From: an uncultured Bacilli bacterium
GTDB taxonomy: Bacteria > Bacillota_I > Bacilli_A > RF39 > UBA660
Direction of reading: 5' to 3'
DNA: 64,000 bases
Assembly: GCA_934183165.1 (NCBI GenBank)
Contig: CAKPRZ010000004.1
Coordinates: forward strand, 5,998 to 69,997
Shown here: piece by piece, positions 20,598-37,666 of the stretch
How the letters are laid out: every line of letters begins with the position of its first letter
Position numbering within the stretch: position 1 is the first letter of the stretch
Program-made: the position numbers and the translations under genes
The notes under the pieces: model-generated
What the model was told of the DNA's origin: nothing
Database searches by the model: none
Seen by the model: only the letters and a program-made list of their open reading frames with translations

Positions 20598-20639
20598 TGT
20601 AAAGTAAAAAAATAATTATTAAATATTTAAAGATATAAA

Positions 20640-20668
20640 TTGACTTTTTAAAAAATTAATATTATTAT
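20640..20668 (+). promoter_or_regulatory. Candidate promoter (TTGACT-17-TATTAT)
   Basis: -35 TTGACT at 20640-45 and -10 TATTAT at 20663-68, with exactly 17 nt between them. Confidence 0.4.
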
Positions 20669-20674
20669 TAAAAT

Positions 20675-20784
20675 GCGTGGTGGTAATCATCATGCATTGA
20701 GCACACTTACGATGATATAATGTGAGTGTGAATTCAACCAAAACCCCCTGAAATTCCCCTCGAGAGAGGGGAATACTTTTGTTT
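20675..20784 (+). ncRNA. Candidate small RNA (promoter-to-terminator unit, about 110 nt)
   Basis: Bounded by the candidate promoter above and a terminator (ttcccctc-gaga-gaggggaa plus tactttt gttt, 20754-20784). Locally GC-enriched. No plausible ORF. Contains the CCCCCTGA motif. Confidence 0.3.
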
Positions 20785-20962
20785 ATAAGGAATTTTTAAC
20801 TATTTTTGATTTATCTAGATACCATACTAGATATTAAACATTATATTTAGATACCAATAATATGGTATTTTTTTGATAAACTTATATTTTAATATTGTAA
20901 AGTGGACAATTTTTTTGGAAAATGGTAGAATTAAAGTATAATTAATAGTAAAAAATGAAGAA

Positions 20963-21262
20963 ATGCTTTTCTATTTTTCTAAAGATAAATATGCAAATAA
21001 ATCCAGTAAAGATTTAAAAGACTTAATTGAACAATATAAAGAATCAGAAACTGATTTATTACAATTTGATTTTAATAAAATAGAAAAAGCAAGAGAAGTA
21101 GGATTTATAATTTTTGATGTAGCAGAACATTTAAAATTACTTAAGGATAATAAAAGTAAATACACTTTAGAACAAGCAGTAGAAGAATTAAATAAAGCAC
21201 AAGAATTACTTAATCCAATTATGGATAAATATGATTATAGTAAATTACCAAAGAAAAATTAA
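20963..21262 (+). CDS. Hypothetical small protein (first gene of a 7-gene operon)
   Basis: 99 aa charged protein, no recognised domain. It is followed at 23 nt by the next gene. Confidence 0.5.
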   Translation: MLFYFSKDKYANKSSKDLKDLIEQYKESETDLLQFDFNKIEKAREVGFIIFDVAEHLKLLKDNKSKYTLEQAVEELNKAQELLNPIMDKYDYSKLPKKN

Positions 21263-21285
21263 ATTGTAAGAAAGTAGGATTATAA

Positions 21286-21810
21286 GTGAAATTATATATA
21301 GTTAGACATGGTGAAGTACCTCATAATGTGTTAAAAATGTATAATAATGTAAATGAAGATTTAACAGATAATGGGATTATGCAGGCATTAGAATTAAGAG
21401 ATAAAATTAAAGATATAAAGTTCGATATGGTTATTTCATCTCCACTTTTAAGAACAATACATACTGAAAACATACTAACATATTATGATGATAGTATTAT
21501 AACTGATGATAGGTTAAGTGAAAGGGGTTGTGGAGATTTAAGTGGTAAACCAAATGAGTGTACAAATAGAGAAGAATATTGGAATTATTATACAGAAATG
21601 CAATATGGGACAAGTGAAAATATTCAAGAGTTTTTTAAAAGAGTATATAACTTTTTAGACGAACTAAAACAAAAAGATTATGAAAGTGTATTAATAGTGG
21701 CACATAGTGGAGTATCAAAGGCATTCAGTGGATATTTTGAAGGAATACAAGATGGTAAGTTTTTAAATAGAGGACTTAAAAATTGTGAAATAAAGATGTA
21801 TGAACTGTAG
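21286..21810 (+). CDS. Histidine phosphatase family protein (phosphoglycerate-mutase-like)
   Basis: GTG start. N-terminal RHGE motif (LYIVRHGEVPHN). Later AHSG motif (LIVAHSGV). Confidence 0.75.
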   Translation: MKLYIVRHGEVPHNVLKMYNNVNEDLTDNGIMQALELRDKIKDIKFDMVISSPLLRTIHTENILTYYDDSIITDDRLSERGCGDLSGKPNECTNREEYWNYYTEMQYGTSENIQEFFKRVYNFLDELKQKDYESVLIVAHSGVSKAFSGYFEGIQDGKFLNRGLKNCEIKMYEL

Positions 21811-21818
21811 GTATTAAT

Positions 21819-22379
21819 ATGGATTTTAATTATGTTGATTTTCTATCATCCAGTGATAAAAAATCTATAAAAAAATTGTATTATGAATCATTCGATAAAG
21901 AGGAAAGATTTCCATTTTGGTTACTAAAAAAGTGTTCTAAAGAAAAGAGTGTAAAGTTTAATGTAATATATAGCAAAGATAAAGTAATTGGTTTTCAATA
22001 CATTATTGAGTATGATAATATTGCTTATTTAATGTATTTTGCCATTGAAAAAAATCAAAGAAATAATGGCTATGGTTCAGAAATGTTAAAAAAGTTAAAT
22101 AGAAGTTATAAAAATGTTTTATTGTGTATTGAAAAATCAAATGAACAAATATCCGATATTAAATATAAAAGAAAACAATTTTATTTAAGAAATGGATTTG
22201 TTGGTACTAATAAGTATATTGTTGATAATAATGTTGAATATGAATTATTGTGTAATAATAGTAATTTAAATATAACTAAAGAAAAATTAGAAAAAAGATA
22301 TACAATGATGACAAGTTCCAAAATATTAAAATTTATAATAAGTAAAATTTTTAATGTTTATAATATTAAATTGAAGTAG
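21819..22379 (+). CDS. GNAT family N-acetyltransferase
   Basis: Acetyl-CoA binding motif NQRNNGYGSEML (Q/R-x-x-G-x-G/A). Confidence 0.6.
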   Translation: MDFNYVDFLSSSDKKSIKKLYYESFDKEERFPFWLLKKCSKEKSVKFNVIYSKDKVIGFQYIIEYDNIAYLMYFAIEKNQRNNGYGSEMLKKLNRSYKNVLLCIEKSNEQISDIKYKRKQFYLRNGFVGTNKYIVDNNVEYELLCNNSNLNITKEKLEKRYTMMTSSKILKFIISKIFNVYNIKLK

Positions 22380-22387
22380 GTGATAGT

Positions 22388-23803
22388 ATGCATATAGGTA
22401 TAGATATAGATAATGTTTTATCGAATTTCAATGAGATATTATTAAATAAATATATTGAGCATGATAAAAGTATTAATGGAAAAGGTATAGTTAATCAAGA
22501 TGTGTATATTAGAGATATGTTTAATTGGGATAAAGAATATGAAGAAAAATTTTACAAAGAAAATATTGAGTATTTTGCAAGCCTATTTGAACCGATTGAA
22601 GAATGTTCTAAATATGTAAAATTATTAAAAGAAGAAGGAAATACAATTTATATCATTAGTGGTCGAGACAATGGTGAATATTCTAACCCATATAAAATGA
22701 CCATTGATTGGTTAAAAAAATATGATATTGTTTATGATAAATTATTTTTAGTAGATGCTTATAATAGTCATTCAAAAACAGAAATATGTTTAGAATACAA
22801 TATTGATGTAATGATAGATGATTCTAAAAGAATGTGTAAGGACATAAAGGATAATGGTATTAGAGCATTACTTATGGATACACCATATAATAGAGATACA
22901 AATGAATTTGAAAGAGTTAATTCATGGAAAGAAATTTATAACAAATTATCTAATAAAAAAATTAATGTGATACTTGATACAGATACTTATAATGAATGTG
23001 ATGACCAATTTGCATTATCATATTTAATTAAGTCACAAGATATGTTTAATATTGAGGCAATTACAGTAGCACCATATTCTCATACAAAAAGAGATGTAAA
23101 AGTAATAGATGGACAAGAGTTGAGTTATAATGAAATTTTAAAAATATGTAATTGGTTAAATTTTGATACCATTGATAAAGTATTTAAAGGATCAATGGAC
23201 TATATTCAAAATGGATATGATGAAAATAATGATGCAGTAAATAAAATAATTGAAGTGGCGCTTAAAAACGATAAAACTTATATATTAGGAATTGGAGCTA
23301 TAACTAATATTGCTTTAGCAATAAAAAAAGAACCTAAGATAATTGATAGAATAGAAATCATTTGGTTAGGTGGAAATGAAATAGAATATAAAGATAATTT
23401 AGAATATAATTTCAAACAAGATATAGAGGCTGTAAAAATAGTGTTTGATTCTACAGTGAAAATGACTATACTACCTTGCAAAAATGTAGTATCAGATTTA
23501 AGAATAGATATAGCTGAATTAAAAAGTAAATTAGATAATAGGAAAGAATTAAATAAATATTTAATTGAGAGATTTTATAATGATGGATATCATGGAATAC
23601 AAGAAACAAGAGTAATATGGGATATATCAGTAATAGCATATATGATAAATAAAAATTGGTTTGAAACAGAAAAAATTAGTTGTCCCAATATCAAGGAAGA
23701 TAGTTCTTATGAATTAACTGATAATAGACATAGTATAACTTTTATAACTAAATTAGATAGAGATAGAATATATGAAGATTTATTTAGAAAGTTAGGAGTA
23801 TGA
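22388..23803 (+). CDS. Fusion protein: N-terminal 5'(3')-deoxyribonucleotidase (HAD, NT5C-like) plus C-terminal nucleoside hydrolase (IU-NH family)
   Basis: N-terminal HAD motif I (MHIGIDIDNVL) and NT5C-like region. The C-terminal half starts with VILDTDTYNECDDQFAL, the DxDxxxDD nucleoside-hydrolase signature. Confidence 0.7.
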   Translation: MHIGIDIDNVLSNFNEILLNKYIEHDKSINGKGIVNQDVYIRDMFNWDKEYEEKFYKENIEYFASLFEPIEECSKYVKLLKEEGNTIYIISGRDNGEYSNPYKMTIDWLKKYDIVYDKLFLVDAYNSHSKTEICLEYNIDVMIDDSKRMCKDIKDNGIRALLMDTPYNRDTNEFERVNSWKEIYNKLSNKKINVILDTDTYNECDDQFALSYLIKSQDMFNIEAITVAPYSHTKRDVKVIDGQELSYNEILKICNWLNFDTIDKVFKGSMDYIQNGYDENNDAVNKIIEVALKNDKTYILGIGAITNIALAIKKEPKIIDRIEIIWLGGNEIEYKDNLEYNFKQDIEAVKIVFDSTVKMTILPCKNVVSDLRIDIAELKSKLDNRKELNKYLIERFYNDGYHGIQETRVIWDISVIAYMINKNWFETEKISCPNIKEDSSYELTDNRHSITFITKLDRDRIYEDLFRKLGV

Positions 23804-23806
23804 ATT

Positions 23807-24415
23807 ATGAGATTAACAAGCAAAGATGCAAGGAATCTATTAGAAGAAGAAAGAAAAAAATCAAATGATGATAGATGGATAGAACATTGCTTATGTGTTG
23901 GTAATGCTGCAGGTAAAATAGCAGAAGCATTAAATGAAAAAGGTTATAATATAGATATAGATAAGACAATTACTCTAGGTTATTTACACGATATTGGTAA
24001 GTATAATGGAGAATCACATGGACATGTTATGAGAGGATATGAATATTTAAAAGAAAGAGGATATGATGATGAATATTGTAATATATGTTTAACACATTCT
24101 TATTTAAATAATGATATAGTGTGTACTGCTGGGGGAGTCCCTAATCCAAATGATAATCCTTTTTTAACAGATTTTATAAAAAATCATGAATATACTATAG
24201 AAGAAAAATTAATAAATTTATGTGATTTGATGTGTCCACAAGGGAACGAAGTATTTACAATTGATAAAAGATTAATTGATATTATGATTAGAAGAGGAGC
24301 TTATTCAAATACACAATATCATATTAAAGAAACTTACAAACTGAAAGAATATTTTGATAGTTTATTAGGATATAATCTCTATGATTTATTTCCTGAAATA
24401 AAAGAAAATTTGTAG
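23807..24415 (+). CDS. HD/HDIG domain phosphohydrolase
   Basis: Motifs HCLCVGNAAGKIAE and LGYLHDIGK. Confidence 0.7.
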   Translation: MRLTSKDARNLLEEERKKSNDDRWIEHCLCVGNAAGKIAEALNEKGYNIDIDKTITLGYLHDIGKYNGESHGHVMRGYEYLKERGYDDEYCNICLTHSYLNNDIVCTAGGVPNPNDNPFLTDFIKNHEYTIEEKLINLCDLMCPQGNEVFTIDKRLIDIMIRRGAYSNTQYHIKETYKLKEYFDSLLGYNLYDLFPEIKENL

Positions 24416-24423
24416 GTGATATT

Positions 24424-25017
24424 ATGCGAATAGGAATAGATATAGATGGCGTATTAACCGACATAGAACAATGGCAGTTAGATTATGGAAGTAAGTTTTA
24501 TTTTGAAAAATATGGTAAAGAAATACAAAATAACGAAGGATATGAAACAACAGAAATATTTAAAGTTGATAGTAAATTAGATGATGAGTTTTGGACTGAG
24601 TATTTTAAAGATTATTCGATAAATGTCGATGTTAGAAAATTGGCTAGTGAAGTAATTAAAAAACTAAAACAAGATGGTAATGAAATTTATATTATTACCG
24701 CAAGAGGTAGCTTTTTATCACATTCTGCAAATGTAATGCTTTTTGAAGAAAATAAAAACATTGTTTTAGAATGGCTTAGAAAAAATGAAATTGAATATGA
24801 CAAAATAATATTTAGCCCAGAAGATAAACTTAGTATATGTTTAGAAAATAATATTGATGTAATGATAGAAGATAAAGTTGACAATATAAACAAAATATCA
24901 ACAAGGATTCCAGTTATATGTTTTCATGCAGGATATAACAAAAATTGTAAAGGTAACAATATTTTCAGATGTTATAGTTGGTATGATATATACAGTAAAA
25001 TAAATAGTATTAAATAA
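24424..25017 (+). CDS. 5'(3')-deoxyribonucleotidase-like HAD phosphatase (paralog of N-domain of 22388 gene)
   Basis: MRIGIDIDGVL HAD motif I. Organisation collinear with the N-terminal half of the 22388 gene (IYIITARG, DVMIEDK). Confidence 0.7.
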   Translation: MRIGIDIDGVLTDIEQWQLDYGSKFYFEKYGKEIQNNEGYETTEIFKVDSKLDDEFWTEYFKDYSINVDVRKLASEVIKKLKQDGNEIYIITARGSFLSHSANVMLFEENKNIVLEWLRKNEIEYDKIIFSPEDKLSICLENNIDVMIEDKVDNINKISTRIPVICFHAGYNKNCKGNNIFRCYSWYDIYSKINSIK

Positions 25018-25036
25018 CATTTGTTGAGGGATATAG

Positions 25037-25813
25037 ATGGAAGTTATTAATAATGAAAATAAAAAAATAATAGATATTGAACTTTTAGAATTATTAAGTG
25101 AAAAAGGTTCAGAAATGACTGTATATAATGATGAAAATTTTGTTTATAAAATATTTAAAAAAGATTATAAACTTGGACATAAAAGTATTGAAGAATTAAA
25201 TTATCTATCATCTATAAAAACATCAAGAATTTTGATGCCTGAATCACTAATATTTAACAATGATGAATTAATTGGTTATACCATGATTTATATAAAAAAT
25301 GAAAAAGATATACATAATGATACAATGGCAAATTTATTAAATGAATTAACGATTATAAAACAAGATATTGATATTCTTAATAAATTATGTGTAAGGTTAA
25401 TAGATATAAATAAATCTAATATTGTTTATAACGGTAAATTATATTTGATTGATCCAGGTAATTATTATATTAATGATGTAAATGATTTATTAATATATTA
25501 TCAAAATAAAGAGATAACTGAAGAAGAAAAACAAAATCTTATTATAAATTGGAATTATAATCAACTTAATAAGTTAATGCATGAATTATTATTTATGAAT
25601 AATAGTGATATTGATTTTTATTTATTAAGAAAAATAATAGAGTTTTTTGAAATTGAAAGAAAAAAAGATGGTTTAATATATGATGCTGGTATTTATCAAA
25701 AATATTTTGATAAGGATTTAACTGTTAGAGAGGCAATTAAAAAATTTGTATCAAACTATATTAAAGTTGATGAAGAAGAGAAAAAAATGGTATTATCACT
25801 TTTTAAAATGTAG
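25037..25813 (+). CDS. Atypical protein-kinase-like fold protein (small-molecule/nucleoside kinase candidate)
   Basis: Gly-loop-like GSEMTVY with VAIK-like Lys in VYKIFKK. Catalytic-loop-like LIDINKSNIVYNG. DFG-like LIDPGN. Confidence 0.45.
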   Translation: MEVINNENKKIIDIELLELLSEKGSEMTVYNDENFVYKIFKKDYKLGHKSIEELNYLSSIKTSRILMPESLIFNNDELIGYTMIYIKNEKDIHNDTMANLLNELTIIKQDIDILNKLCVRLIDINKSNIVYNGKLYLIDPGNYYINDVNDLLIYYQNKEITEEEKQNLIINWNYNQLNKLMHELLFMNNSDIDFYLLRKIIEFFEIERKKDGLIYDAGIYQKYFDKDLTVREAIKKFVSNYIKVDEEEKKMVLSLFKM

Positions 25814-25828
25814 TAATGAGGTGTTATT

Positions 25829-27044
25829 GTGAAAAGATTATTAAGGATTGGTTTTGATTTATCATTGTTATCGTTTATACCAATAATATATTGATTTCTA
25901 CTTGGGATAATAGTTGATAAGAATTTAATTAATATATTTACTTTAACTTATCCATTACAATTTATATATTATATAATTAAATCTATATTTTCTACTGGGG
26001 CTAATATAAGTAAAGAAAAAGATAAAAATAAAGATGCGGTAATGTCTGGCTTAATATTAGGAACAATTGTTTCTATAATTATTTTTACTGTAATTCTATT
26101 AAATGTTGATAATTATATTAGTTTTATGAATATGGATATAAGTACATATAAAAACTTTACTATATATTCAATATTACAACTATTTATTTGTTTAGAATTT
26201 GCAATGATGCAAGATAAGTTATATTATGAAAAAAAATAAATTAGCAAATAAGCATTCATTAGTATTTAATTTATTAAATTTTATATTATTAATTGGAACA
26301 TCTTTAATAACAAAAAATCAAATTATTATAATTTCAACAACATTAATTCCATTAGCGATATATACTTTGTATATTTATATTAAAAACGGTAATAAGTTTA
26401 AATTTAATATTAATGTATTAAAGTGTATAAAATATGGTTCAGTTGAGTTATTCAATAATATTGCATTCTTTTTAATATTCTTATTTGGATTATCTAATGT
26501 CTTAGAATATGGAGAAATGTATGCAACTGCTTTGACTTTTATAGCATTAATAACTGATACACAATGGGATACATTTGATGCTATAAAAGAAGCAGCAACA
26601 ATAGATATTAGTAAAAGAAAGTTTAATTATATACAACATAGAAATAATGCTTATAAATTATTAGGAATACTATTTGGAACAAGTTTAATGATGTTTTCAT
26701 TCTTATTTGGATTTTATGATTTAGATTTTAAAATTACTATGATATATTTTTCTTTTGAAATAGTAAATTTCTTAATATATCCAATATATAGAATTAAAAC
26801 TTGTTATTTGCAATTAGAATATTCAGCTTTTAAAATTACATCAAATAAGATAATAGCATCAATACTTAGAATGGTCATGTCATTATTAAAAACGCCATTT
26901 TGTACAGGAATAGGACAAGTATGTTCATCAGTTTATCAATTTATAACAGTTAGTATAATGTTTAATCATAATTTTAAAGTTGATAAAACAGGTTGTGTTA
27001 TTAAAAAAAAATCAATACTGAATAATGACACTATGACATTATAA
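25829..27044 (+). pseudogene. Fragmented multi-TM membrane protein gene (possible disrupted flippase/transporter)
   Basis: Three consecutive short hydrophobic ORFs in different frames (25829-25894, 26042-26239, 26226-27044) separated by in-frame stops. Together they look like one polytopic membrane protein. Confidence 0.3.
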
Positions 27045-27204
27045 ATGAGAGTAGGGTACTCACAAACAATATGTCATTGTGTCATTTAATAATAAAAATA
27101 ATGAAATATGTGATATAATAGTATATATAAAAAGAAGCGCTAGTACAGGCTTATGTTTATAAGTTTTTGTATTGGCGTTTTTTTCGTAGTAAGGAAGTGA
27201 TAAA

Positions 27205-29262
27205 ATGAATTTAAATTTAGAAAATGGATATACTGTTACTTTACCTTCAAAAGGAAAGCATAATATATATTATGGACCAAATAAAATAGGTAAAACTCAG
27301 ATATCTCGTTCGATGAAAAAATATTATGAAGAAATAAGTGAAAAAGTTCTTTTGTTTAATGAAAATATTTTAAGTGATATGATTATTCAAAGTAGTGAAG
27401 ATATTAATTCTTTTGAAGTAATGCCTATGGCACAAGAGTATAATAAATACTATAATAATATGCAAAAAAGTAAAGAAAAATTATCAATGAAAAATAGTTT
27501 AAAGGATTTATGCTTAGTTAATACAAAAAAGGCATTTCAAGGGTTTGAAAAAATAAGTGAGTATATTAATGATGATAATACTTATTCTTATAATGGTGAT
27601 GATTTATTACCATTTTATAGTCAAGATGATATCAAGGATATGTATAAGCCAAAAAAGGTAAATATGAATATTTTTGAAATAATTGATAATCTGAAAAAAG
27701 ATAATATCAAAATAATACCAGATAATGTTAAGAAAATTGTTGAGCATGATATATATAGTATTCAATTGAAAATAAATCAAGACCCAGATAAATACAAGAA
27801 TTGTCCTGTTTGTTTTTCACCTATTTGTCAAGAAAATTTAGATAAGATAAGAGAAAGCATTGAAAATGGTTCAATCGAAAAAGAATTGCAATTATCAATA
27901 TTATTCTATTTAGACAATAAAAGTGATATTTTAAGGAATAAAATGTCTGAGATATTATTGTGCGAATCATATGAATCATTTGAAAAAGATTTTAAGTTGG
28001 ATGTTGAAAAATCTATTATTTCTTATTTAAGTAATCAGTATGATAAAAAGGATGTTATAAATTATAAAGAAAATAAAACAAAAGTTGAAGAAATATTAAA
28101 TAAAACAAAGGATTTTAAAATAACTGAAAATATTGAATTAAGTAATTATATAAAAAATAAATTAAAGAATCATACGGTTTATAAAAATACAGATATAGAA
28201 ATAAAAATTAGTGATGGAAAGTTAAAAGTTTTAAATAGTCAAGTTGAATATGACAAAATGTCTAAATCGGAACAAAATTATTTTAAATTTCTTTATTTTG
28301 ATATTTTAGTTCATCAAAAGATTTTAGAAGGAAAATTGCATATAATTATTGATGATCCATTTGATAGTTATGATGATATTTATGTCCAAGATTCAATAGC
28401 AATAATAACAAAATTAATAAATGAACATATTGAAGATATTGATACAATTGATATTTTTTCTCACAGTATGTATATTCTTGATTTATATGATTCATTGAAA
28501 AAAATATATAATAAATTTAATATTTACTGGATGGATCAAATTGGTTTAACAAAAGAAATAAATATATTTGAAGATGGCTATCTTTTGTTTGAAAAAATAG
28601 ATATAAATCCTTACGATTATGGAATTATATTGAAGATTAGCGATAAAATGGTTGATAAATATTCATTGATTGCATTTGCTGCACTTTTAAGAAATGAAAT
28701 AAATGTAGAGCGTTTGTTATTTAAAAATAATAGCAATGGTGAACTTTCTGATGTGAAAAATAAAGTAGAAGAACTATATAATAAAATATCAGAATCAATC
28801 GATCATGTGAGGCAGGAAATATCAATAATTGAATTAAATAACATTATTAATGAAATATTTTATTTTGGCTTAAACGATAACGAAATACAGAATGTGTCAT
28901 CTTTATTTGATGATATTTCAAAAGATTATGTTGATATAGATATAAAAGCAAAAACTGGTTCTGGAAATGTTGTATCGGTTCCTAAAAATGATATTTGTTA
29001 TATATTAATTTATAAAATATTATTTGGTTTGAAAATTAGAAGATTATTAGAAAAGAAGGTTTATGATATTGTACAAGAAGACTACACTGAAGTGTGGGAT
29101 TTAATTGAAAAAATACCAAATACTCCATTGTATGATTATTATAATTTATATAAATACATAATTAATTCGTTTAATCATTCTTCATCAAGAGTTGTTCCAC
29201 CAATTTTTGTGTATAGTTTCAAATCATTACGAGAAATGTATGAAGAATTACAAGCATTGTAG
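27205..29262 (+). CDS. SMC/Rad50-like P-loop ATPase with CxxC zinc-hook-like insert and uncharacterised C-terminal domain
   Basis: Walker A GPNKIGKT near the N-terminus. CPVCFSPIC about 170 aa later. Walker B-like IIIDDPFDSYDD around aa 380. About 300 aa of unknown C-terminal region. Confidence 0.55.
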   Translation: MNLNLENGYTVTLPSKGKHNIYYGPNKIGKTQISRSMKKYYEEISEKVLLFNENILSDMIIQSSEDINSFEVMPMAQEYNKYYNNMQKSKEKLSMKNSLKDLCLVNTKKAFQGFEKISEYINDDNTYSYNGDDLLPFYSQDDIKDMYKPKKVNMNIFEIIDNLKKDNIKIIPDNVKKIVEHDIYSIQLKINQDPDKYKNCPVCFSPICQENLDKIRESIENGSIEKELQLSILFYLDNKSDILRNKMSEILLCESYESFEKDFKLDVEKSIISYLSNQYDKKDVINYKENKTKVEEILNKTKDFKITENIELSNYIKNKLKNHTVYKNTDIEIKISDGKLKVLNSQVEYDKMSKSEQNYFKFLYFDILVHQKILEGKLHIIIDDPFDSYDDIYVQDSIAIITKLINEHIEDIDTIDIFSHSMYILDLYDSLKKIYNKFNIYWMDQIGLTKEINIFEDGYLLFEKIDINPYDYGIILKISDKMVDKYSLIAFAALLRNEINVERLLFKNNSNGELSDVKNKVEELYNKISESIDHVRQEISIIELNNIINEIFYFGLNDNEIQNVSSLFDDISKDYVDIDIKAKTGSGNVVSVPKNDICYILIYKILFGLKIRRLLEKKVYDIVQEDYTEVWDLIEKIPNTPLYDYYNLYKYIINSFNHSSSRVVPPIFVYSFKSLREMYEELQAL

Positions 29263-29506
29263 AATTCTAGATACTAAAACTAGATACTAAATCTCAAAAA
29301 TAAAGTTATTCTTATAAACTTTGGTAAATTATGATAAAAGAAAAAGCCTTAATTTATAAGACTTTAACTAAATATTAAATTATTACGAACTGATATTAAT
29401 ATTTCCCCCTGAAGGAGCCGAAAGACTCCATTTTTGTTTGCTGTAAACTAAGACGAATAACTTTTTAATATTTATGTTATAATGTTTATATATTAGGAGG
29501 TTCCAA

Positions 29507-29911
29507 ATGAAAGTAATAAGTATTAAAGAACCATTTGCAACTTTGATAGCTAACGGTATTAAAAAAATAGAAACAAGAAGTTGGAAAACTAATTATCGTG
29601 GTGAATTATTTATACATGCTAGTGGAAAGCAACTTGCCAAAGAATTTATTAAAAATGATTTTGTATTAGATTTAATAAAAAATATGGACATGAATTATGG
29701 TAATATTATTTGTAAATGTAATTTAGTTGACTGCATCTATATGGATGAACAATTTTTAAATTATATAAAGCAAAATCAAATAGAATATAATCTAGGCGAA
29801 TATAAACTAGGAAGGTATGCATGGATTATAGAAGATGTAGAACCTATTTATCCAATATCTGCAAAGGGACGATTAAACCTTTGGAATTTTGATGATATAC
29901 AAAATAAATAA
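29507..29911 (+). CDS. ASCH domain protein (PUA-like fold)
   Basis: MKVISIKEPFATLIANGIKKIETRSW...GELFIHAS matches the ASCH pattern. RBS aggagg. Confidence 0.7.
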   Translation: MKVISIKEPFATLIANGIKKIETRSWKTNYRGELFIHASGKQLAKEFIKNDFVLDLIKNMDMNYGNIICKCNLVDCIYMDEQFLNYIKQNQIEYNLGEYKLGRYAWIIEDVEPIYPISAKGRLNLWNFDDIQNK

Positions 29912-29974
29912 ATGTATTGTTTGCTGAACCATGTCTGTGATATATTATTACTATAATAGAGGTATGGTAGTAAG

Positions 29975-30517
29975 ATGAAAAAATTATGTACAAAAGAAAT
30001 AATTGATAAGATATTAGTAATGTCAATAATAATGGTTATTAGTGGCGTTTTTGGATTTATATATGAGGTCTTATTTTACAAAATAGAATTGGGATACTTT
30101 GTAAAAAGAGGCACGGTATATGGACCTTGGATACCAATATATGGATTTGGAGGATTATTTATATTTATTACAACTTATAAACATAAAGATAAAGTAAGCT
30201 TAACCTTTTTAATAAGCTTGTTAGTATGTGGCCTTTTAGAATTTATGACAGGATATTTGTTATATCACATAGAAGGAATAAGATTATGGGACTACAATAA
30301 TGAAATTTTAAATTCTGGTAACATAGGTGGATATGTTTGCTTAAGATCTGTAGTTTTCTTTGGCATATCTGGTCTTTTCTTGATGAGGTGTGTATTGCCT
30401 TTAATTACCAATTTAAAAACAAAGTTATCATTTAAAAAATTCTCTTTTATTAGTGTATTTCCATGTACGTTATTTTTGATTGATTTCATAGTTAGTGATA
30501 TTTTTAAATTAAAATAG
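29975..30517 (+). CDS. Small polytopic membrane protein (possibly DUF1113 / 'putative ABC-transporter type IV' family)
   Basis: 4-5 TM helices. Motif GFIYEVLFY...GTVYGPWIPIYGFGG. Confidence 0.45.
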   Translation: MKKLCTKEIIDKILVMSIIMVISGVFGFIYEVLFYKIELGYFVKRGTVYGPWIPIYGFGGLFIFITTYKHKDKVSLTFLISLLVCGLLEFMTGYLLYHIEGIRLWDYNNEILNSGNIGGYVCLRSVVFFGISGLFLMRCVLPLITNLKTKLSFKKFSFISVFPCTLFLIDFIVSDIFKLK

Positions 30518-30559
30518 ATTAATAAATGTGTTATACTTACAAAGATAAGTGGTGATAAA

Positions 30560-33500
30560 ATGAGTGAAAAGTTAACATTAGATGAATTTAATTCTATAAT
30601 AAAAAAACTAAATGATGAGTCTTATTCTATCGATGAAAAATTATCTTTTCAAGAAAAATTATTGTTATCTGATCTAAGTAATATTCCATCTACAGAGTGG
30701 GGAAAAGTAACCCTTATGACAGATGGTAATATGATCGATTTCTCTAAAACAAAAGCTAATATTGATTTTAATATATTTAAATATTTAGGAAATGGTAATT
30801 TTAAGAATTGTAATATCACTCATTTAGAAAACTTTCCCGGATATCTTAACCATTCAAATTTTGATGAAAAAGCTATGAAAGATAATAAAGAATTGTTTTT
30901 ATCAAATCTTTTTTCAGATGAATTCAAAGACAAATATTATTCTAGAATGATAACAATGGATGATTTGTCTTTATTAAATGATGCACAAATAAACGAATTA
31001 AAAGTCAAAAATATTCCTCACTATGTAGGATCAGCGGAAATTAACATTCAATTACTTGAAACACTAGGAATAGAAAAAATTCTAAAAATATATAAAACTT
31101 CTAAAAATGATTATGATGCAATCAATTCTATTTACAATAATTACGCTTCTATATTATATGAAGAAGATAAAAATATTGTTGATGAACTAAAAAACACTCA
31201 GGCAACTAGAATAAAAAATGTATTATTTACAAAGTTAAAACAATATTTAAGCAAAGATGATTATGAAGGTATTGATTTAGAGATGCTCCCTAAGATGTTT
31301 TTAGAGGAATATATTAAAAAATTTAATTTAGATGATGAATTAATAAATGCTTTTGGAATTGATAATGTTTTAAAACTCGAAAATGAAACAAAAATATTTT
31401 CTATATGCAAAAATTTGAGTTTTGATGAAGATGATCTTGAAAATTTCCAAAATGGTAATCTATCTTATGAAGAATTTAGAGATGCATTTGCCGATTTACT
31501 TAATAAAGCGCGACTAGTAGGAAGATATAAAATAAGTAAGGAATATGATTATGATTTAGAAAAAATGGTAACTAAAGATAATAGTTATAGTTTTATTTTT
31601 GGAAAATTTAGACAGGATTTTCCAGATATTTTTATTGATGATAAAGCACCAGATAAATTAAAGAAAGAATTTTATGAAGGAAAACTAACTTTTAATTGTC
31701 TACTTAATCATGAATACATACCATACATTAAAACAAAAAATCTTTCTAAATTGTTTAATTTTTCTTCCAATAAATCAAGTGAAAAATTTGTTTATGATTA
31801 TACTAGAAAATTTGGTAATAGTAAATTTATAAGTTTGGTAAAAAAATATAATATTACAGACTTAAAGATTTTAAATTCTGAAAAATCAGATTTTGATTTT
31901 AAGAGTAAAGAAGGTTTTGAAAAATACTTACGTGATATTCTATATGACAAATTATGCCAAAACGATGATTTACCAGATACGACTAGAAAAACTATTCTTG
32001 CTAACAATGATTTTAGAAATGAACATCCAAATGTAGTTATTGATCTAGAAGCATTGTCAAATTTAAATATTCCTAATAACGATTATGAATTATTGAAGGA
32101 AAAGATTTCATATAACTATTTAACTGCCAATGATGTTATGCATTATCCAGAACTTGTATCTTTATTAAAAGGTAAAGATTTAACTACAGTATTAAGTATT
32201 AGCAACACGATTCATCTATTGAAAAAATTAAATGAAGATGAAATATTGAACTTAATAGCAAAATATGGAAAGTCTTTTAATTATGCATTTAAAATAATAT
32301 CCGAAAACTATGATAGTGAACTAGAAAATCTATCTTATGAAGATATTGAAAATAAAATAGAAAAAACTATTGTTGATGAATACAAAAATGGTAAATATTT
32401 TTATAATGAGGATTCTCCAGAAGTAATAAAAGAAAAATATCCTGAATTATATTTGGATTCTTCTGCTCCTGATGAATTAAAAAATAGATTTTATAATATA
32501 GCTAATCAAAAACTTACTTTTCCTGACTTACGTGCTCATAAAGAGTGGTTACCCTACTTAGAAGGAAAATCTGTTATAACAGCGTTACTTAAAAGCTGTC
32601 GTGATCCTGAGATATTAAAAAAATATTTTGATTTGTTTGGTAATGAAAAAGCATTAAAACTTGGAATAAATAAATATGAAACAGTATTACCTATGTTACA
32701 ATTTGATAATGTAGAATTGATGAAAAAATGGTACGATAGAACAGGTCAAAGATTTTTACCTGATGCTGCTATAATAAATAATTTTGATTTAGCTGAAGCT
32801 GATAAATTTTTTAGATTTGGTTCTAATTGGACTAAATTGATGCAACTAAATAATTATTCTGTTGATTACGAAACAAAAGATGGTGTATTAAAATTAGCTT
32901 ATTCTTTTGGAGTCTTCGATGGGGATGAAAAAGGATTAAAATCGACTGTTGATATTTTGACTCGAATACCTAGAAAATTAAATCCTAATTATAGTTCTAC
33001 AATGAAAAAACTCATAAATCAAGCAAACAATGATGTTTTATTTAAATCTTTTTTAAATAAAGCAATAGAAGAAGAAAATGTACAAGTTAATTCTGATGAA
33101 CCTTTGCTTGATCAAATTTATAGAAAAAATGATGATAATTCATATACTTTAACGATTAACCAACAAAACTGTCCAAAAACTACTGGTTTAATTCGTAACC
33201 TAATGGCACAGTATGAAGATTTACCAGTATTACATTATCTTAAGGTTCATAGCTTGTTTAGTGGCTTTAGTATGAAATATGATAAAGATTTTAGAGATTT
33301 CCTTGTTAATAATATAGATGAGATTTTATCTAGTCCAGAATATACAACTTATTTGTCAAAAATACAAAGACAATTTTCAGAAATAAAGGCTATAAATAGT
33401 AATAGAAAGTTAACGCTAGAGTTAGCAAAAAATTATGTTATAAGTAATAAGTATATTGGTATTCAACCAGGAAATGAGTTGGCAGCAGATATATCAGCAA

Positions 33501-34669
33501 CGGCTGGTTATAGTCAAACTGACTTTGATGTTTTACAAGAAATATATAATTATGGTAAACAAAGAACGTTTAGTAGTATTCCTAGAATAGAGGGACAAAA
33601 AGATGATTATAAATACGAAATGTTAAGACTAGATGATGCTCTTGCAATGGCAATTGGTGCTTTTACTGATTGTTGCCAAGAGTTAGGAGACGTTGCTGAA
33701 ATGTGTATGGAGCATAGTATGGTTGATAAAAATGGTCGTGTTTTTGTAATTAAAGATAGTGATAATAATATAGTAGCTCAAAGTTGGGTATGGAGAAATA
33801 AAAGTGTATTATGTTTTGACAACATTGAAATTCCTAGCAAAGCCTTTAATAGAGCATTAAAACTAAGAAGTGAACATAGAGACTTATTTTCACAAGAAGT
33901 ATATGATGTATATAAGCAAGCAGCAATAGAACTTATGAATAAAGATGAAGAAAAATATGCTAAATTGCTTTCTGAAGGATTCATTAGTAAAGAACAATAT
34001 GATGGATTACATTTGAGTAAAGTTACAGTTGGACTTGGCTACAATGATATTGCTAATACCATAAAAAAGAATGCAAAATTGGAAAAAGATCATATAACAA
34101 GGCCACTTCCTTTTGATGCTCCTGTGAAATTAAAGAATCAATTATATGCAAATGATTCAACAACTCAATTTATATTGAATGAGAATAAAGATGAATTTAA
34201 TTATTCTGGAGATACATTGCCTATTTATAGTGATGAATATCAGGAATATGATGATAGCAATTTTAACCCTAAACTGCTACTAACTCTTAATAAATTAGAA
34301 ATGTTAACTAAAAACAAATATAGTGATTTAGAAACAGATGTTGTAGCAGATAATTCTAACATAGTTAGTTCAATTGCTGAAAACTATAATTTAGATCCAT
34401 CAAGTACTAAAATAGTTATGAATCCTAATTTTGCAATTATTTATGCTTGTGAAGATGATAATTTAAAAATTGGTGATTTGTTATACAATAATAAGCTTGG
34501 TGATGATAAAGTTTTAGTAATGCAAATCAAATTAGCTTTAGATCAAATAAGTAAAGATAAAAAAATAGATATATCTAAATTAACGGAAAATCAATTAGAA
34601 GTATTCAATGATGCTAATGCTATAGGAAACGAAATAGAAATAGAAAAAGGATTAGGAAATTCAAAGTAA
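30560..34669 (+). CDS. Very large (1369 aa) cytoplasmic-type orphan protein with internal repeats
   Basis: No signal peptide or TM. Repeated roughly 45-aa units (F..DFPDIFIDDKAPDKLKKEFYEGKLTFNCLLNHEYIPY and YPELYLDSSAPDELKNRFYNIANQKLTFPDLRAHKEWLPY). Cys/His cluster FTDCCQELGDVAEMCMEHS near residue 1040. Confidence 0.7.
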   Translation: MSEKLTLDEFNSIIKKLNDESYSIDEKLSFQEKLLLSDLSNIPSTEWGKVTLMTDGNMIDFSKTKANIDFNIFKYLGNGNFKNCNITHLENFPGYLNHSNFDEKAMKDNKELFLSNLFSDEFKDKYYSRMITMDDLSLLNDAQINELKVKNIPHYVGSAEINIQLLETLGIEKILKIYKTSKNDYDAINSIYNNYASILYEEDKNIVDELKNTQATRIKNVLFTKLKQYLSKDDYEGIDLEMLPKMFLEEYIKKFNLDDELINAFGIDNVLKLENETKIFSICKNLSFDEDDLENFQNGNLSYEEFRDAFADLLNKARLVGRYKISKEYDYDLEKMVTKDNSYSFIFGKFRQDFPDIFIDDKAPDKLKKEFYEGKLTFNCLLNHEYIPYIKTKNLSKLFNFSSNKSSEKFVYDYTRKFGNSKFISLVKKYNITDLKILNSEKSDFDFKSKEGFEKYLRDILYDKLCQNDDLPDTTRKTILANNDFRNEHPNVVIDLEALSNLNIPNNDYELLKEKISYNYLTANDVMHYPELVSLLKGKDLTTVLSISNTIHLLKKLNEDEILNLIAKYGKSFNYAFKIISENYDSELENLSYEDIENKIEKTIVDEYKNGKYFYNEDSPEVIKEKYPELYLDSSAPDELKNRFYNIANQKLTFPDLRAHKEWLPYLEGKSVITALLKSCRDPEILKKYFDLFGNEKALKLGINKYETVLPMLQFDNVELMKKWYDRTGQRFLPDAAIINNFDLAEADKFFRFGSNWTKLMQLNNYSVDYETKDGVLKLAYSFGVFDGDEKGLKSTVDILTRIPRKLNPNYSSTMKKLINQANNDVLFKSFLNKAIEEENVQVNSDEPLLDQIYRKNDDNSYTLTINQQNCPKTTGLIRNLMAQYEDLPVLHYLKVHSLFSGFSMKYDKDFRDFLVNNIDEILSSPEYTTYLSKIQRQFSEIKAINSNRKLTLELAKNYVISNKYIGIQPGNELAADISATAGYSQTDFDVLQEIYNYGKQRTFSSIPRIEGQKDDYKYEMLRLDDALAMAIGAFTDCCQELGDVAEMCMEHSMVDKNGRVFVIKDSDNNIVAQSWVWRNKSVLCFDNIEIPSKAFNRALKLRSEHRDLFSQEVYDVYKQAAIELMNKDEEKYAKLLSEGFISKEQYDGLHLSKVTVGLGYNDIANTIKKNAKLEKDHITRPLPFDAPVKLKNQLYANDSTTQFILNENKDEFNYSGDTLPIYSDEYQEYDDSNFNPKLLLTLNKLEMLTKNKYSDLETDVVADNSNIVSSIAENYNLDPSSTKIVMNPNFAIIYACEDDNLKIGDLLYNNKLGDDKVLVMQIKLALDQISKDKKIDISKLTENQLEVFNDANAIGNEIEIEKGLGNSK

Positions 34670-34686
34670 AGTGAATTTCCTTTTTT
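34654..34686 (+). terminator. Rho-independent terminator
   Basis: ggaaattca-aagtaaag-tgaatttcc 9-bp stem followed by tttttt. Confidence 0.7.
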
Positions 34687-34868
34687 AGTTATAAATTGGT
34701 TTTAAAATACATATTTATATATGAATGCTTAACTAAGATTAGTTAATTTTTACTTAACTTTCATAATTATGTATGTTATACTAACCTTAGAGTAGTAGTG
34801 TGTTTTGAGTGTATTATTGGCATTCAATATGTAGTCTATTCAATATTAAACGAAGGAGAGGGAAGAAA

Positions 34869-36083
34869 ATGGGATTTATTAAAGCATTTTCAGGAGCACT
34901 AAGTGGTACATTTGCCGATCAATGGAAAGATTTTTATGTACCTATGCAAGGTGTTCCAGCAACAGCAGCATTATTTCGCGCAGTACCACAAGGTACTAAT
35001 GCAGGAAGGGGAGAAAATACTAAAGGTTCTGAAAATATAATCACTAATGGTAGTAAGATTATTGTCCCAGAAGGTACAGCATTAATAACTATTCAAGATG
35101 GACAAATAACAGGTTTAGTTGCGGAACCAGGTGGATTTGAATTCAGAAGTGATGATCCTAATTCAAAATCAGTTTTCAGTGGAGATGGAATTTTATCATC
35201 TACTATTGGAACAACATGGGACAGAGTAAAATTTGGTGGTCAACCAGGAACTCAACAATTAGCATTCTATGTTAATTTAAAAGAAATTCCAAATAATAGA
35301 TTTGGTACTCAATCAGAAATTTATTGGGATGATGCATATTTAAATACACAGGTTGGAGCAGTAACAAGAGGTACATATACATTAAAAATAGTAGATCCAC
35401 TATTATTTGTTAAGAATTTTGTACCACAAATGTACTTACAACCTAATGCCCCTGTATTTGATTTTGCAGATGATGAAAATGATGCAGGAACTCAATTATT
35501 TAATGAAGTAGTTGGAACTTTGTCTGCAGCATTCTCTAATTATACAAATGATCCAAGTAAAGGAAATCGTATTGCAAAAATTCAAGGAGATCAAATTGGA
35601 TTTGCTCAAGCAATGAGTCAAGCAGTAGAAGAAGCATATCAATGGAAGAGTAGTAGAGGTCTAGAAATTGCTAAGACAGCTATCCTTGCTATTGAATATG
35701 ATGAAGATACTAAAGAATTAATGAAAGATGTTAAGAAGGCTGACGCATTATCTGGTGCAAGAGGAAATTCATTCATGCAACAATCAGTTGCACGTGGAAT
35801 GCAAGCAGCAGGCGAAAATCCAAATGGTGGTGGTACTGCAATGGCATTTATGGGAATGGGTATGAATGCAGCAGGAGGTATGATGCAAGGTATGCAACAA
35901 CCACAACAAGCTGCACAAAACCCATTTATAAATACTGGAGTACAACAACAAGCACCAGCACAACAACCACAAACTCAAGCAGATCCTTATGAAGAATTAA
36001 AAAAAGCTAAAGAGTTATTGGATGCTGGAATCATTTCACAAGAAGATTTCGATGCAAAGAAAAAAAGTTTACTAGGTATATAA
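34869..36083 (+). CDS. SPFH-domain protein of the COG4260 'virion core protein-like' family with C-terminal SHOCT domain (B. subtilis YdjI-like)
   Basis: Start MGFIKAFSGALSGTFADQWKDF after RBS aaggagaggg. The listed ORF starts 60 nt upstream. Q-rich linker. C-terminal SHOCT signature YEELKKAKELLDAGIISQEDFDAKKKSLLG. Confidence 0.7.
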   Translation: MGFIKAFSGALSGTFADQWKDFYVPMQGVPATAALFRAVPQGTNAGRGENTKGSENIITNGSKIIVPEGTALITIQDGQITGLVAEPGGFEFRSDDPNSKSVFSGDGILSSTIGTTWDRVKFGGQPGTQQLAFYVNLKEIPNNRFGTQSEIYWDDAYLNTQVGAVTRGTYTLKIVDPLLFVKNFVPQMYLQPNAPVFDFADDENDAGTQLFNEVVGTLSAAFSNYTNDPSKGNRIAKIQGDQIGFAQAMSQAVEEAYQWKSSRGLEIAKTAILAIEYDEDTKELMKDVKKADALSGARGNSFMQQSVARGMQAAGENPNGGGTAMAFMGMGMNAAGGMMQGMQQPQQAAQNPFINTGVQQQAPAQQPQTQADPYEELKKAKELLDAGIISQEDFDAKKKSLLGI

Positions 36084-36087
36084 ATTT

Positions 36088-37542
36088 ATGGAAAACGAAA
36101 GTTTAAAAGAAGAGTTAAGTAATGAAGTTTCTGAAAATACGCCAACTGTTGTAAAAACTGATGTTGATGCAAAAGATGGTCAAAATAAGTGTCCAAAATG
36201 TGGCGCTACTGATATTTCATTAAATGTTAAGAATGGTAAATTAAGATGTAATTTTTGTAGACATGAGTTTGAACCAGAGTCTTTTGATTCAATGCAAAAA
36301 GATATAAGCCAATTAGAAGGAGAAGTAATTGGATCTGGTGCAACAAACATAATCGCAGATGTAAGCGATATGGTTACGTTTAAATGTAGTAGTTGTGGAG
36401 CTGAAGTTGTAGTCGATACGGCTTCATCTGCTCAAGCTAGATGTCATTGGTGCAGAAATATTTTATCAGTTAACCAACAGATTCCTAATGGAGCTATTCC
36501 TGATACTGTTTTACCATTTAAAGTTACAAAACAGGATGCTAAAACAGAAATAGAAAAATTTGTTGGAAAGCGAAAATTTTATGCACATCCTCAATTTAGA
36601 AAAGAATTTACAACAGAAAACATAATGGGTGTTTATTTACCTTATATGATTGTAGACGCTAATACTCATGCAAATTTATCTGGTCAAGGTGAACATCAAA
36701 CAAGAAGTTATGTTGTTAAAAATGGAGAACATTCTGAAACATATTATGATGCTGATTTATATAATGTTGAAAGAGATTTTGATTTAACTGTTGAAGGTTT
36801 AACGGTAGAGTCAAGTAAAGACAAACTTGATACCAATTCTAAAGATAGAACAACTAATATAATAAATGCAATTATGCCATTTGATACTGAAAACTGTGTA
36901 AAATGGAATGCTAATTATATAAAAGGATATACATCTGAAAAAAGGGATACTAATGTTGAAGATCTTAAGGATTTAGTTAAAGAACAAACTAAGGACGTAG
37001 TGAGATTTGCTGCTAATAAAACATTAGAACAATATGATCGTGGAGTTAGATGGGATAGTCAAAATGTAACAATAAAAGGACAGCAATGGAAGTCAGCATA
37101 TTTACCAATATGGTTATATAGTTATCAACAGGTTAATGGGGATAAAAAATTATTACACTATGTAGCAGTTAATGCTAGAACAAAAGAAACTATGGGTAGT
37201 GTTCCAATACATATGCCTAAACTTTTGTTTATATCATTTCTAGTAGAAATTTTAGGAGTTATTGCTATGATATTCACATATAGTGATGATAGCAATTGGC
37301 CATGGTTATTTTTAGCAAGTGGTTTTGTATATTTCTTCATAATATATAGTAAATATAGAAATAGTGGAGCTAGACATAATCACGAAACAGAGACTAAAAC
37401 TAACATGTCCAACCTTAAAGAAAATGATAATTTTGTAAGGCACGAAACAGGTCTTAGAAATCCTATGATGGATGGTTCTAATAATAGAAGCGTTAATGGA
37501 ACTACTAGTGCAATGAATGTTTTGAAATCATTTAAAAAATGA
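36088..37542 (+). CDS. Tandem zinc-ribbon protein with C-terminal membrane segment (YdjG-like partner of the SPFH protein)
   Basis: CPKCG...CNFC and CSSCG...CHWC zinc ribbons. Two TM helices near the C-terminus. 4-nt gap to the upstream gene. Confidence 0.65.
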   Translation: MENESLKEELSNEVSENTPTVVKTDVDAKDGQNKCPKCGATDISLNVKNGKLRCNFCRHEFEPESFDSMQKDISQLEGEVIGSGATNIIADVSDMVTFKCSSCGAEVVVDTASSAQARCHWCRNILSVNQQIPNGAIPDTVLPFKVTKQDAKTEIEKFVGKRKFYAHPQFRKEFTTENIMGVYLPYMIVDANTHANLSGQGEHQTRSYVVKNGEHSETYYDADLYNVERDFDLTVEGLTVESSKDKLDTNSKDRTTNIINAIMPFDTENCVKWNANYIKGYTSEKRDTNVEDLKDLVKEQTKDVVRFAANKTLEQYDRGVRWDSQNVTIKGQQWKSAYLPIWLYSYQQVNGDKKLLHYVAVNARTKETMGSVPIHMPKLLFISFLVEILGVIAMIFTYSDDSNWPWLFLASGFVYFFIIYSKYRNSGARHNHETETKTNMSNLKENDNFVRHETGLRNPMMDGSNNRSVNGTTSAMNVLKSFKK

Positions 37543-37548
37543 AACTAG

Positions 37549-37571
37549 ACAGGCTGATGCCTGTTTTTTTA
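37549..37571 (+). terminator. Rho-independent terminator
   Basis: acaggc-tgat-gcctgt plus ttttttt. Confidence 0.65.
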
Positions 37572-37666
37572 TAAAAAAATAAAAGAAATTTTTATAAAAA
37601 GATATATTTATTTATTATTTATGGTATACTTTAACAGTAATAATAAATGAGTTATATAAATGAGGG

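Follow-up and report, generated by a model that had tools for sequence, protein, structure and literature searches.

An RloC-like ABC-ATPase with a hook-like CxxC insert and a putative C-terminal nuclease region, carried in a single-gene cassette of uncultured gut Bacilli

The locus considered here raises the question of what is encoded by the gene at positions 27205..29262 (+ strand, stop codon included) of the window, by which we mean the whole 64,000-nucleotide stretch of contig CAKPRZ010000004.1 from an uncultured Bacilli bacterium, and of whether its 685-residue product acts alone or together with the ASCH-domain protein encoded beside it. A sequence-only reading of this low-GC DNA (about 21–30 %), the + strand of which carries nearly all of the genes, had described the product as a Rad50/SMC-like ATPase with a zinc-hook-like CxxC insert, possibly an anticodon nuclease, and had taken the ASCH neighbor as a sign of RNA targeting or defense. 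The present analysis supports this picture in part: the RloC-like character holds in outline, and the ASCH partnership and a canonical coiled coil find no support. Among the abortive-infection nucleases that target tRNA, RloC and PrrC are the classic examples, and we hold it to be probable, if well short of certain, that the gene, a self-contained single-gene cassette moving between gut bacteria, codes for a stand-alone toxin of the RloC-like kind that serves abortive infection or defense.

The protein contains the complete motif set of an ABC-type ATPase. The Walker A motif (P-loop) GPNKIGKT comprises residues 24–31 (27274..27297; here and below, coordinates refer to the + strand of the window unless stated otherwise), the segment CPVCFSPIC comprises residues 200–208, and the Walker B motif with the D-loop, IIIDDPFDSYDD, is found at residues 380–391 (28342..28377), about 350 residues past the P-loop. 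These are the motifs on which the sequence-only reading had been built, and all of them are present. Two motifs that it had not named complete the set, namely the ABC signature-like MSKSEQ at residues 352–357 (28258..28275) and the switch, or H-loop, FSHS at residues 418–421 (28456..28467), which contains the switch His in the pair S419-H420. Residue conservation was counted in an alignment of 25 homologues and then in one of 48 full-length homologues (26–98 % identity). In the latter, G24, K30, and T31 of the P-loop, C200, P201, and C203 of the CPVC motif, S353 and E356 of the signature, D383, D384, P385, and D390 of Walker B, and S419 and H420 of the H-loop are each found in 48/48 sequences, the blocks S353-x-S-E356 and D383-D-P-F-D-S-Y-D390 being conserved throughout. 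Such invariance, as for K30, C200, C203, S353, E356, D383, D384, and H420, exceeds chance.

The AlphaFold model of the protein is confident (pLDDT 87.8, pTM 0.75), and Foldseek ranks Rad50 heads as its best neighbors in the PDB, ahead of Lamassu LmuB, Smc5/6, and the retron Eco8 ATPase. The homologues fall into 54 clusters of the same length, all of them unannotated. When 1.8 billion representatives were searched exhaustively with the profile of the ATPase family, only 71 matches were obtained, and these revealed a continuum of relatives of 600–800 residues that share the layout P-loop / CPxC / hhhDDP / C-terminal R-x3-E...N-x3-H. The distant matches, of 730–760 residues, correspond to Pfam AAA_13 over their full length (E 1e-146 to 1e-158), and 18 of these were aligned as a reference set, A2. 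We take this set as a valid RloC/PrrC reference because, in addition to the AAA_13 match, it displays the RloC hallmarks CPFCQQ, LSEGE, IDDPxSSLD, LTHN, and MRRILExYF...SW.N.GSH, is called PDC-S06 by PADLOC, and matches the PrrC model through the nuclease domain (E 1e-11 to 1e-13). When the ATPase family is aligned to A2 with hhalign, the signature/Walker B/H-loop block is obtained with a probability of 98.9 % (E 3.5e-17) and the P-loop block with a probability of 98.4 % (E 1e-14), the latter falling onto G-x-N-G-x-GKT. The alignment pairs MSKSEQ with LSEGE, Walker B with VVIDDPxSSLD, and FSHS with LTHN, and all four RloC head motifs are found in the protein, conserved in all 48 homologues and aligned to the RloC-type set. 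The ABC-ATPase fold of the Rad50/SMC type proposed earlier is hence backed by both the Rad50 heads in Foldseek and the hhalign match to RloC-type AAA_13 proteins. We consider the ABC-hook homology close to certain, which is our own estimate rather than a computed figure.

Walker A is separated from the signature motif by a helical insert, residues about 75–325 (27427..28179), in which DSSP analysis of the model finds 13 short, segmented helices. The zinc-hook-like CPVC motif (C200 and C203, 27802..27813) sits between model helices 181–192 and 209–221 in a helix-loop-helix arrangement; in RloC, the CXXC zinc hook occupies a loop in the middle of the corresponding α-helical insert. Its CPxC is aligned by hhalign with the CPFC of RloC (E 1.3e-3), and a comparison of the family profile with PDB sequences gives no significant match, the first one being the Rad50 zinc hook 1L8D, placed on CPVC with an E of 0.49. 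The assignment of a hook-like CxxC motif between Walker A and Walker B can accordingly be kept, since the motif is invariant and aligns with the hooks of RloC and Rad50. It is probably a hook with a role in zinc-mediated dimerization or in regulation, at which zinc would be bound.

The DNA around the gene is conserved as a unit with it. A 5′ noncoding element (27045..27204) is found upstream of the ATPase gene with 77–96 % identity at loci L001-3, L016-21, and L014, and a 3′ noncoding element (29263..29440) follows the gene with 86–93 % identity at L001-3, L016-21, and L027; each is present in a single copy in the window. From the sequence, the 5′ element is predicted to contain an extended −10-like site, TGTGATATAAT (27109–27119), and the ribosome-binding site (RBS) AAGGAAG (27191–27197). 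The 3′ element contains, directly past the stop codon, two perfect tandem copies of CTAGATACTAAA at a spacing of 13 nt (29267–29291), and further on a terminator-like hairpin, GGAGCCGAAAGACTCC (29414–29429), with a T-run behind it that extends as far as about 29439; the hairpin is not listed in the automated terminator scan owing to one mismatch in the stem. The promoter scan is uninformative in such AT-rich DNA (54 sites vs 52 expected), and for the cassette together with its flanks Rfam yields a chance-level match to U4 alone (E 0.45). Two copies of CTAGATACTAAA with one mismatch are also seen, one directly past recG (20827) and the other on the − strand (41159), which makes 4 matches vs 0.9 expected.

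The DNA homology to independent contexts extends from about 27000–27024 to 29414–29440, that is, over ~2.4 kb. Because this homology spans the 5′ element, the open reading frame (ORF), and the 3′ element and nothing else, while the partner genes vary, the unit is a single gene, and the ATPase gene appears to travel as a 2.4-kb promoter–ORF–terminator cassette. The two elements are not confined to this gene: in L014 (268–412, 1398–1572, and 3724–3837) they bracket an unrelated DUF3644 gene of the HEPN family, and in L001-3 the 3′ element also follows an ABC/FtsX operon (L001 16165–16310). This arrangement suggests that promoter–ORF–terminator cassettes may be swapped by recombination within integrase/Mob_Pre elements. 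The internal switch of RloC has been proposed to permit lateral transfer without an external silencer (PMC3458546), and a cassette-style spread of an RloC-like gene is consistent with this, since such a switch makes an external silencer unnecessary.

The ATPase family is found in 12/185,579 species representatives, all of which are metagenome-assembled genomes of uncultured gut Bacilli or "Tenericutes"; no relatives are obtained by tblastn against phage genomes or by blastn against plasmids. The neighborhoods of the gene vary between loci. A trio of nSTAND3, ATPase, and Fic genes is seen in L004 (5720–10951), L024, and L025 (7720–13000), followed in L025 by a Type I restriction-modification (R-M) system. 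A KAP NTPase and a Type I R-M system are found in L010, at a site downstream of recG equivalent to that of the window, HsdM/R in L019, and a Type II R-M system composed of a C5-methylase and a MwoI-like endonuclease in L011-13. In L014, AbiEii, DUF3644, and HEPN genes lie inside an integrase/Mob_Pre element, and integrase/Mob_Pre/AAA_25 elements are present in L001-3, L016, and L021. Overall, R-M genes occur within 10 kb of the ATPase gene in L004, L010, L011-13, L014, L019, and L025. This is in line with a published survey (PMC3710099) in which RloC-like ABC-HEPN genes are described as linked to R-M systems and to Fic/Doc toxins. The homologue loci are thus defense islands and mobile or mobilizable elements, which lends support to the proposed defense context. 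In one clade, whose members show about 52 % identity to the window protein, the gene always has an nSTAND3 (SMEK_N) NTPase upstream and Fic downstream, and nSTAND3–ATPase–Fic may be a three-gene defense module, which is lacking from the window copy.

What, then, does the head control? The sequence-only reading had placed an uncharacterized domain of 300 residues at the C-terminus; a C-terminal stretch is indeed present, with a length of about 265 residues past the H-loop, and it ends in an Arg-x3-Glu-x41-His arrangement of the RloC/PrrC type. It is made up of a family-specific middle domain, residues about 446–600 (28540..29004), in which D457, D484, Y486, R496, and H534 are invariant or near-invariant, and of a motif region resembling the RloC/PrrC (HEPN-like) nucleases (29005..29259), with K604, R612-x3-E616, N654-x3-H658, and P666. 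The nuclease of RloC is defined by Arg-X3-Glu-X36-52-His, which matches R320/E324/H356 of PrrC (PMC2610378), and the RloC/PrrC nuclease domain has been classed as a divergent HEPN RNase in a survey of HEPN domains (PMC3710099). R612-x3-E616-x41-H658 of the window protein falls within the published range (PMC2610378). Among the 48 homologues, R612 and H658 are conserved in 48/48, N654 in 47/48, and E616 in 44/48, with a Glu-to-His spacing of 41–48.

In hhalign, GLKIRRLLEKK...IINSFNHSSSR of the window protein is placed onto QNVMRRILEHY...SWLHDGSHS of RloC (P 0.004–0.012), and apart from R612...H658 no C-terminal segment aligns to the nuclease core of RloC. The score is 22.5, compared with 11.4 ± 2.5 for a column-shuffle null, and is reached by 0/100 shuffles. 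The same His is picked by both independent hhalign runs, and 24 intermediate relatives carry both C-terminal blocks behind the P-loop / CPxC / hhhDDP head. The position −4 from the His is occupied by Asn rather than by the Arg of the HEPN motif R-x4-6-H, as is also the case in the RloC set (cf. RloC N-x-G-S-H). Plain HMM-versus-sequence scoring with the RloC C-terminal profile gives about 0–5 bits for everything. The HEPN superfamily is characterized by an up-down bundle of four helices; the isolated C-terminal model is helical and confident (pLDDT 88), and among its weak structural matches the HEPN ones (3O10 and 7AE6, E about 4, nonsignificant) are the only biologically sensible ones. We regard these data as suggestive, short of conclusive, of an RloC/PrrC-type nuclease in the C-terminus, because the broader superfamily C-terminal profile matched the His block alone (P 0.07) and no structural neighbor is significant.

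There are in fact two invariant Arg...His pairs in this part of the protein, R496...H534 and R612...H658. The former mimics RloC in its spacing to the H-loop and to the NP motif and was considered as the RloC triad, but this assignment is rejected, since the segment has no hhalign match to the RloC nuclease core (E 0.37) and no Glu at +4. An internal duplication, or tandem HEPN arrangement, is unsupported as well (hhalign E 0.21).

A number of observations weigh against the RloC-like assignment. No model in Pfam, NCBIfam, PADLOC, or PHROGs matches the 685-residue ATPase (E ≤ 0.1 for Pfam and PADLOC), and the scans of individual members give faint matches, to Rad50_zn_hook in 2/25 members and to AAA_13 in 1/25 (E 0.0016), and also to ABC_tran and mad8. 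In the insert, 0 % of the arm residues are above the shuffle threshold for heptad periodicity, compared with about 27 % for the RloC-like P0122, according to a heptad score that is a crude, rough test for coiled coils; the canonical coiled coil expected around the CxxC motif, which in RloC is predicted to be long and antiparallel, is thus unsupported, because the helices are short and no heptad periodicity rises above shuffles, unlike in the RloC-like control. At the C-terminus, the alignment to RloC is weak (P 0.004–0.07; HHsearch-style probability <10 %), the top shuffle reaches 21.8, near the observed score, and Foldseek finds no significant neighbor of the isolated model in the PDB or BFVD; no RloC or PrrC structures were found in the PDB for comparison. 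The residue before the His is Asn, not the Ser that is often present there in RloC, and three members of one clade have Gln in place of the Glu. The 155-residue middle domain, in which an Arg and a His are likewise invariant, is without a counterpart in RloC (hhalign E 0.37 against the RloC C-terminal region) and could be the real effector. Finally, the window contains no homologue of the R-M, Fic, nSTAND3, KAP, Abi, or integrase genes of the other loci.

The clade with Gln comprises P0051, P0053, and P0054, which are the most divergent members (26–28 % identity) and have R-x3-Q for R-x3-E and RQ for RR. P0054 is found in a glycosyltransferase locus and not in a defense island. To judge from the sequences, the clade may have altered or lost activity.

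Some of these points feed the alternative that survives best. In it, the protein would be an ABC-hook ATPase related to Rad50 and RloC but equipped with an effector other than an RloC-type RNase, and the likeness of R612/E616/H658 to the triad would be fortuitous. The middle and C-terminal regions (D457, D484, R496, H534, K604, R612, and H658) would then contribute some different activity to defense, such as DNA cleavage, nucleotide hydrolysis, or partner binding. Such an explanation would account for a C-terminal fold without a significant structural neighbor, for the weak profile match to the RloC nuclease core, and for a middle domain that is both unique and highly conserved, and the clade always located between nSTAND3 and Fic offers possible suppliers of the effector function. 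It does not, however, sit well with the order, spacing, and C-terminal position of R-x3-E...N-x3-H, which are kept across many intermediate families reaching AAA_13, with the agreement of the two hhalign runs on the His, or with the spread of the gene in partnerless form too. We consider this alternative unlikely, though it deserves to be taken seriously.

The RloC-like reading is also to be distinguished from a PrrC-style arrangement. PrrC is a tRNA-Lys anticodon nuclease linked to the Type Ic R-M system EcoprrI. By analogy, the ATPase-nuclease would be silenced by an R-M enzyme or by the nSTAND3, Fic, or KAP NTPase partner and freed when a phage inhibits that partner. Both proteins have an NTPase of the ABC type and, C-terminal to it, an Arg/Glu/His nuclease, or nuclease-like, region, and some homologues of the window protein adjoin Type I R-M genes; R-M genes lie within 10 kb of the gene in several loci, the nSTAND3–ATPase–Fic order is kept in three, and PrrC itself is regulated in this way (PMC2610378). 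On the other hand, PrrC has about 400 residues and no CxxC insert and is always found inside an hsd locus (PMC2610378), whereas the window gene has the insert and no hsd or other R-M genes in the window, the R-M linkage elsewhere is variable, and the PADLOC PrrC model does not match the window protein. In addition, the partners change from locus to locus, copies that are 97–98 % identical lack such neighbors, the window lacks all of them, and the CxxC insert is precisely what sets the self-regulated RloC apart from PrrC (PMC3458546). External silencing of this kind appears improbable.

The ASCH-domain ORF is present beside the ATPase gene at 29507..29911 (134 residues; Pfam PF04266, E 1.6e-7), and the sequence-only reading had combined the two into an RNA-targeting pair. 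In the window, as in contigs identical to it, the two genes lie side by side with the same orientation, ASCH is a putative RNA- or nucleoside-binding (PUA-like) fold, and an ASCH paralogue with 56 % identity is located 0.7 kb downstream in L017. A two-gene system is nevertheless very improbable. The co-occurrence check proposed with that reading shows that the neighbor is not conserved, the outcome which the reading itself had named as refuting the pairing: ASCH adjoins the ATPase gene exclusively in the contigs identical to the window, 4/6 loci with a 97–98 %-identical ATPase (L016, L018, L019, and L020) and all more distant loci lack it, and in L021 the 56 %-identical paralogue is 6.6 kb away. 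The homology of the cassette stops at the terminator ahead of ASCH, which is thus outside the 2.4-kb unit. Between the two genes lie the terminator-like hairpin and a separate promoter-like site, the ASCH gene having a predicted extended −10 of its own, TGTTATAAT (29475–29483), and its own RBS. Being outside the conserved unit, past the terminator, and missing from most contexts, ASCH is best seen as a bystander. The ASCH gene probably stands on its own and may have a part in the metabolism of nucleosides or modified cytidine, as its neighbors of the NT5C, nucleoside hydrolase, and HD types may, with which it fits better; the guilt-by-association call is corrected accordingly. The ASCH protein also matches the phage family phrog_3193 of PHROGs (E 6e-37).

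A housekeeping role in DNA repair, as an SMC/SbcC-like protein, is scarcely credible, because the Rad50-like head fold (the top Foldseek match) and the hook-like CxxC that aligns to 1L8D are accompanied by a very short insert without a long coiled coil, by a C-terminal domain foreign to Rad50 and SbcC, by no conserved nuclease neighbor of the Mre11/SbcD type across the examined loci, and by a rare, patchy distribution on mobilizable elements and defense islands.

Of the known systems, RloC remains the closest. Like RloC, the window protein has an ABC head interrupted by a helical insert that contains a single CxxC, a nuclease or nuclease-like region C-terminal to this head, homologous head motifs (G-x-N-x-x-GKT, the S-x-[SG]-E signature, hhhDDP-x-x-S/Y-x-D, and [ST]-H), and the Arg-x3-Glu-x41-His spacing; both are encoded in laterally moving single-gene units often found near R-M systems and Fic. 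The differences are that the window protein stays below the threshold of every curated model tried, that its insert, which lacks a heptad signal, has about 250 residues compared with about 380 in RloC, that the 155-residue middle domain with R496 and H534 is extra, and that the His is in N-H-S rather than in S-H. The distance from the H-loop to the Arg is 192 residues in the window protein and 72 in the RloC-like P0122. The window family is, moreover, confined to uncultured low-GC gut Bacilli. Lamassu LmuB, the retron Eco8 ATPase, PARIS AriA, and MADS mad8 similarly use SMC/ABC-type heads as defense sensors, and they appear as structural (Foldseek) or faint HMM matches to the window family. 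Their effectors are, however, separate proteins or other domains (Toprim, Cap4, and others), and none of them combines a CxxC with the R-x3-E...H layout.

On the RloC-like reading, the protein would consist of three parts, namely a split Rad50/SMC-type ABC head with the CPxC insert, the middle domain, and a C-terminal HEPN-like core acting as a metal-independent RNase. RloC performs tRNA anticodon-loop cleavage or wobble-nucleotide excision, with a DNA-dependent ATPase as the switch (PMC2610378, PMC3458546), and in Geobacillus RloC the hook and the DNA-dependent ATPase together form an internal switch on the nuclease (PMC3458546). By analogy with the latter, the ABC head and the CPxC insert would keep the C-terminal RNase silent. 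A phage-linked cue, such as DNA ends or a failed DNA restriction, would then lead to ATP binding or hydrolysis and to a change in the nucleotide state of the head, upon which R612, E616, and H658 could cleave tRNA in the anticodon loop, or else another essential RNA. The infected cell would then cease to translate, and the infection would be aborted.

A more far-reaching scenario, which taken as a whole we find rather doubtful, is that R496/H534 and R612/E616/H658 constitute two RNase-type sites or one composite site, an intramolecular counterpart of the HEPN dimer, and that several defense genes are swapped in an integron-like manner as cassettes enclosed by the 5′ element of about 155 bp and the 3′ element of about 175 bp, inside integrase/Mob_Pre mobilizable elements of uncultured gut Bacilli.

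The cassette lies in a variable island downstream of recG (18612–20597), for which the comparison covered the span 20600–37600 of the window and the loci L016/L021 and L010. Two of these, L016 and L021, have an integrase/Mob_Pre/AAA_25 module between recG and a shared cargo composed of a 99-residue ORF, an NT5C–nucleoside hydrolase fusion, an HD gene, a 272-residue membrane protein gene, and the ATPase gene. The window island is without this module and for this reason looks like a remnant or variant of the element. The fusion in the window (22388–23803) has 471 residues and joins an NT5C-type 5′-nucleotidase of the HAD type to an inosine-uridine nucleoside hydrolase; it is followed by an HD phosphohydrolase gene and then by a second NT5C gene. 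This is an unusual cluster for the degradation of nucleotides to bases, which could serve salvage metabolism or a nucleotide-depletion defense. Further along, an ORF of 1369 residues (30560–34669), without a match in Pfam, NCBIfam, PADLOC, or PHROGs, is flanked by genes for a CmpB-like membrane protein (29975–30517) and for an SPFH/SHOCT protein (34809–36083).

What is new here is a divergent family of the RloC/PrrC ABC-HEPN kind, itself a known kind, which the four profile libraries tried leave undetected. The family extends the RloC/PrrC architecture into uncultured low-GC gut Bacilli and Tenericutes, where it is invisible to Pfam, NCBIfam, PADLOC, and PHROGs, and profiles of it and of the intermediate families would, if added to the defense databases, improve the annotation of gut metagenomes. 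The protein is a compact version that occurs in nature, in which the insert is short and a conserved domain has been added, and it could help to separate those parts of a Rad50-like switch that are essential for nuclease control. The conserved flanks, in turn, hint at how single-gene defense modules shuffle between mobilizable elements.

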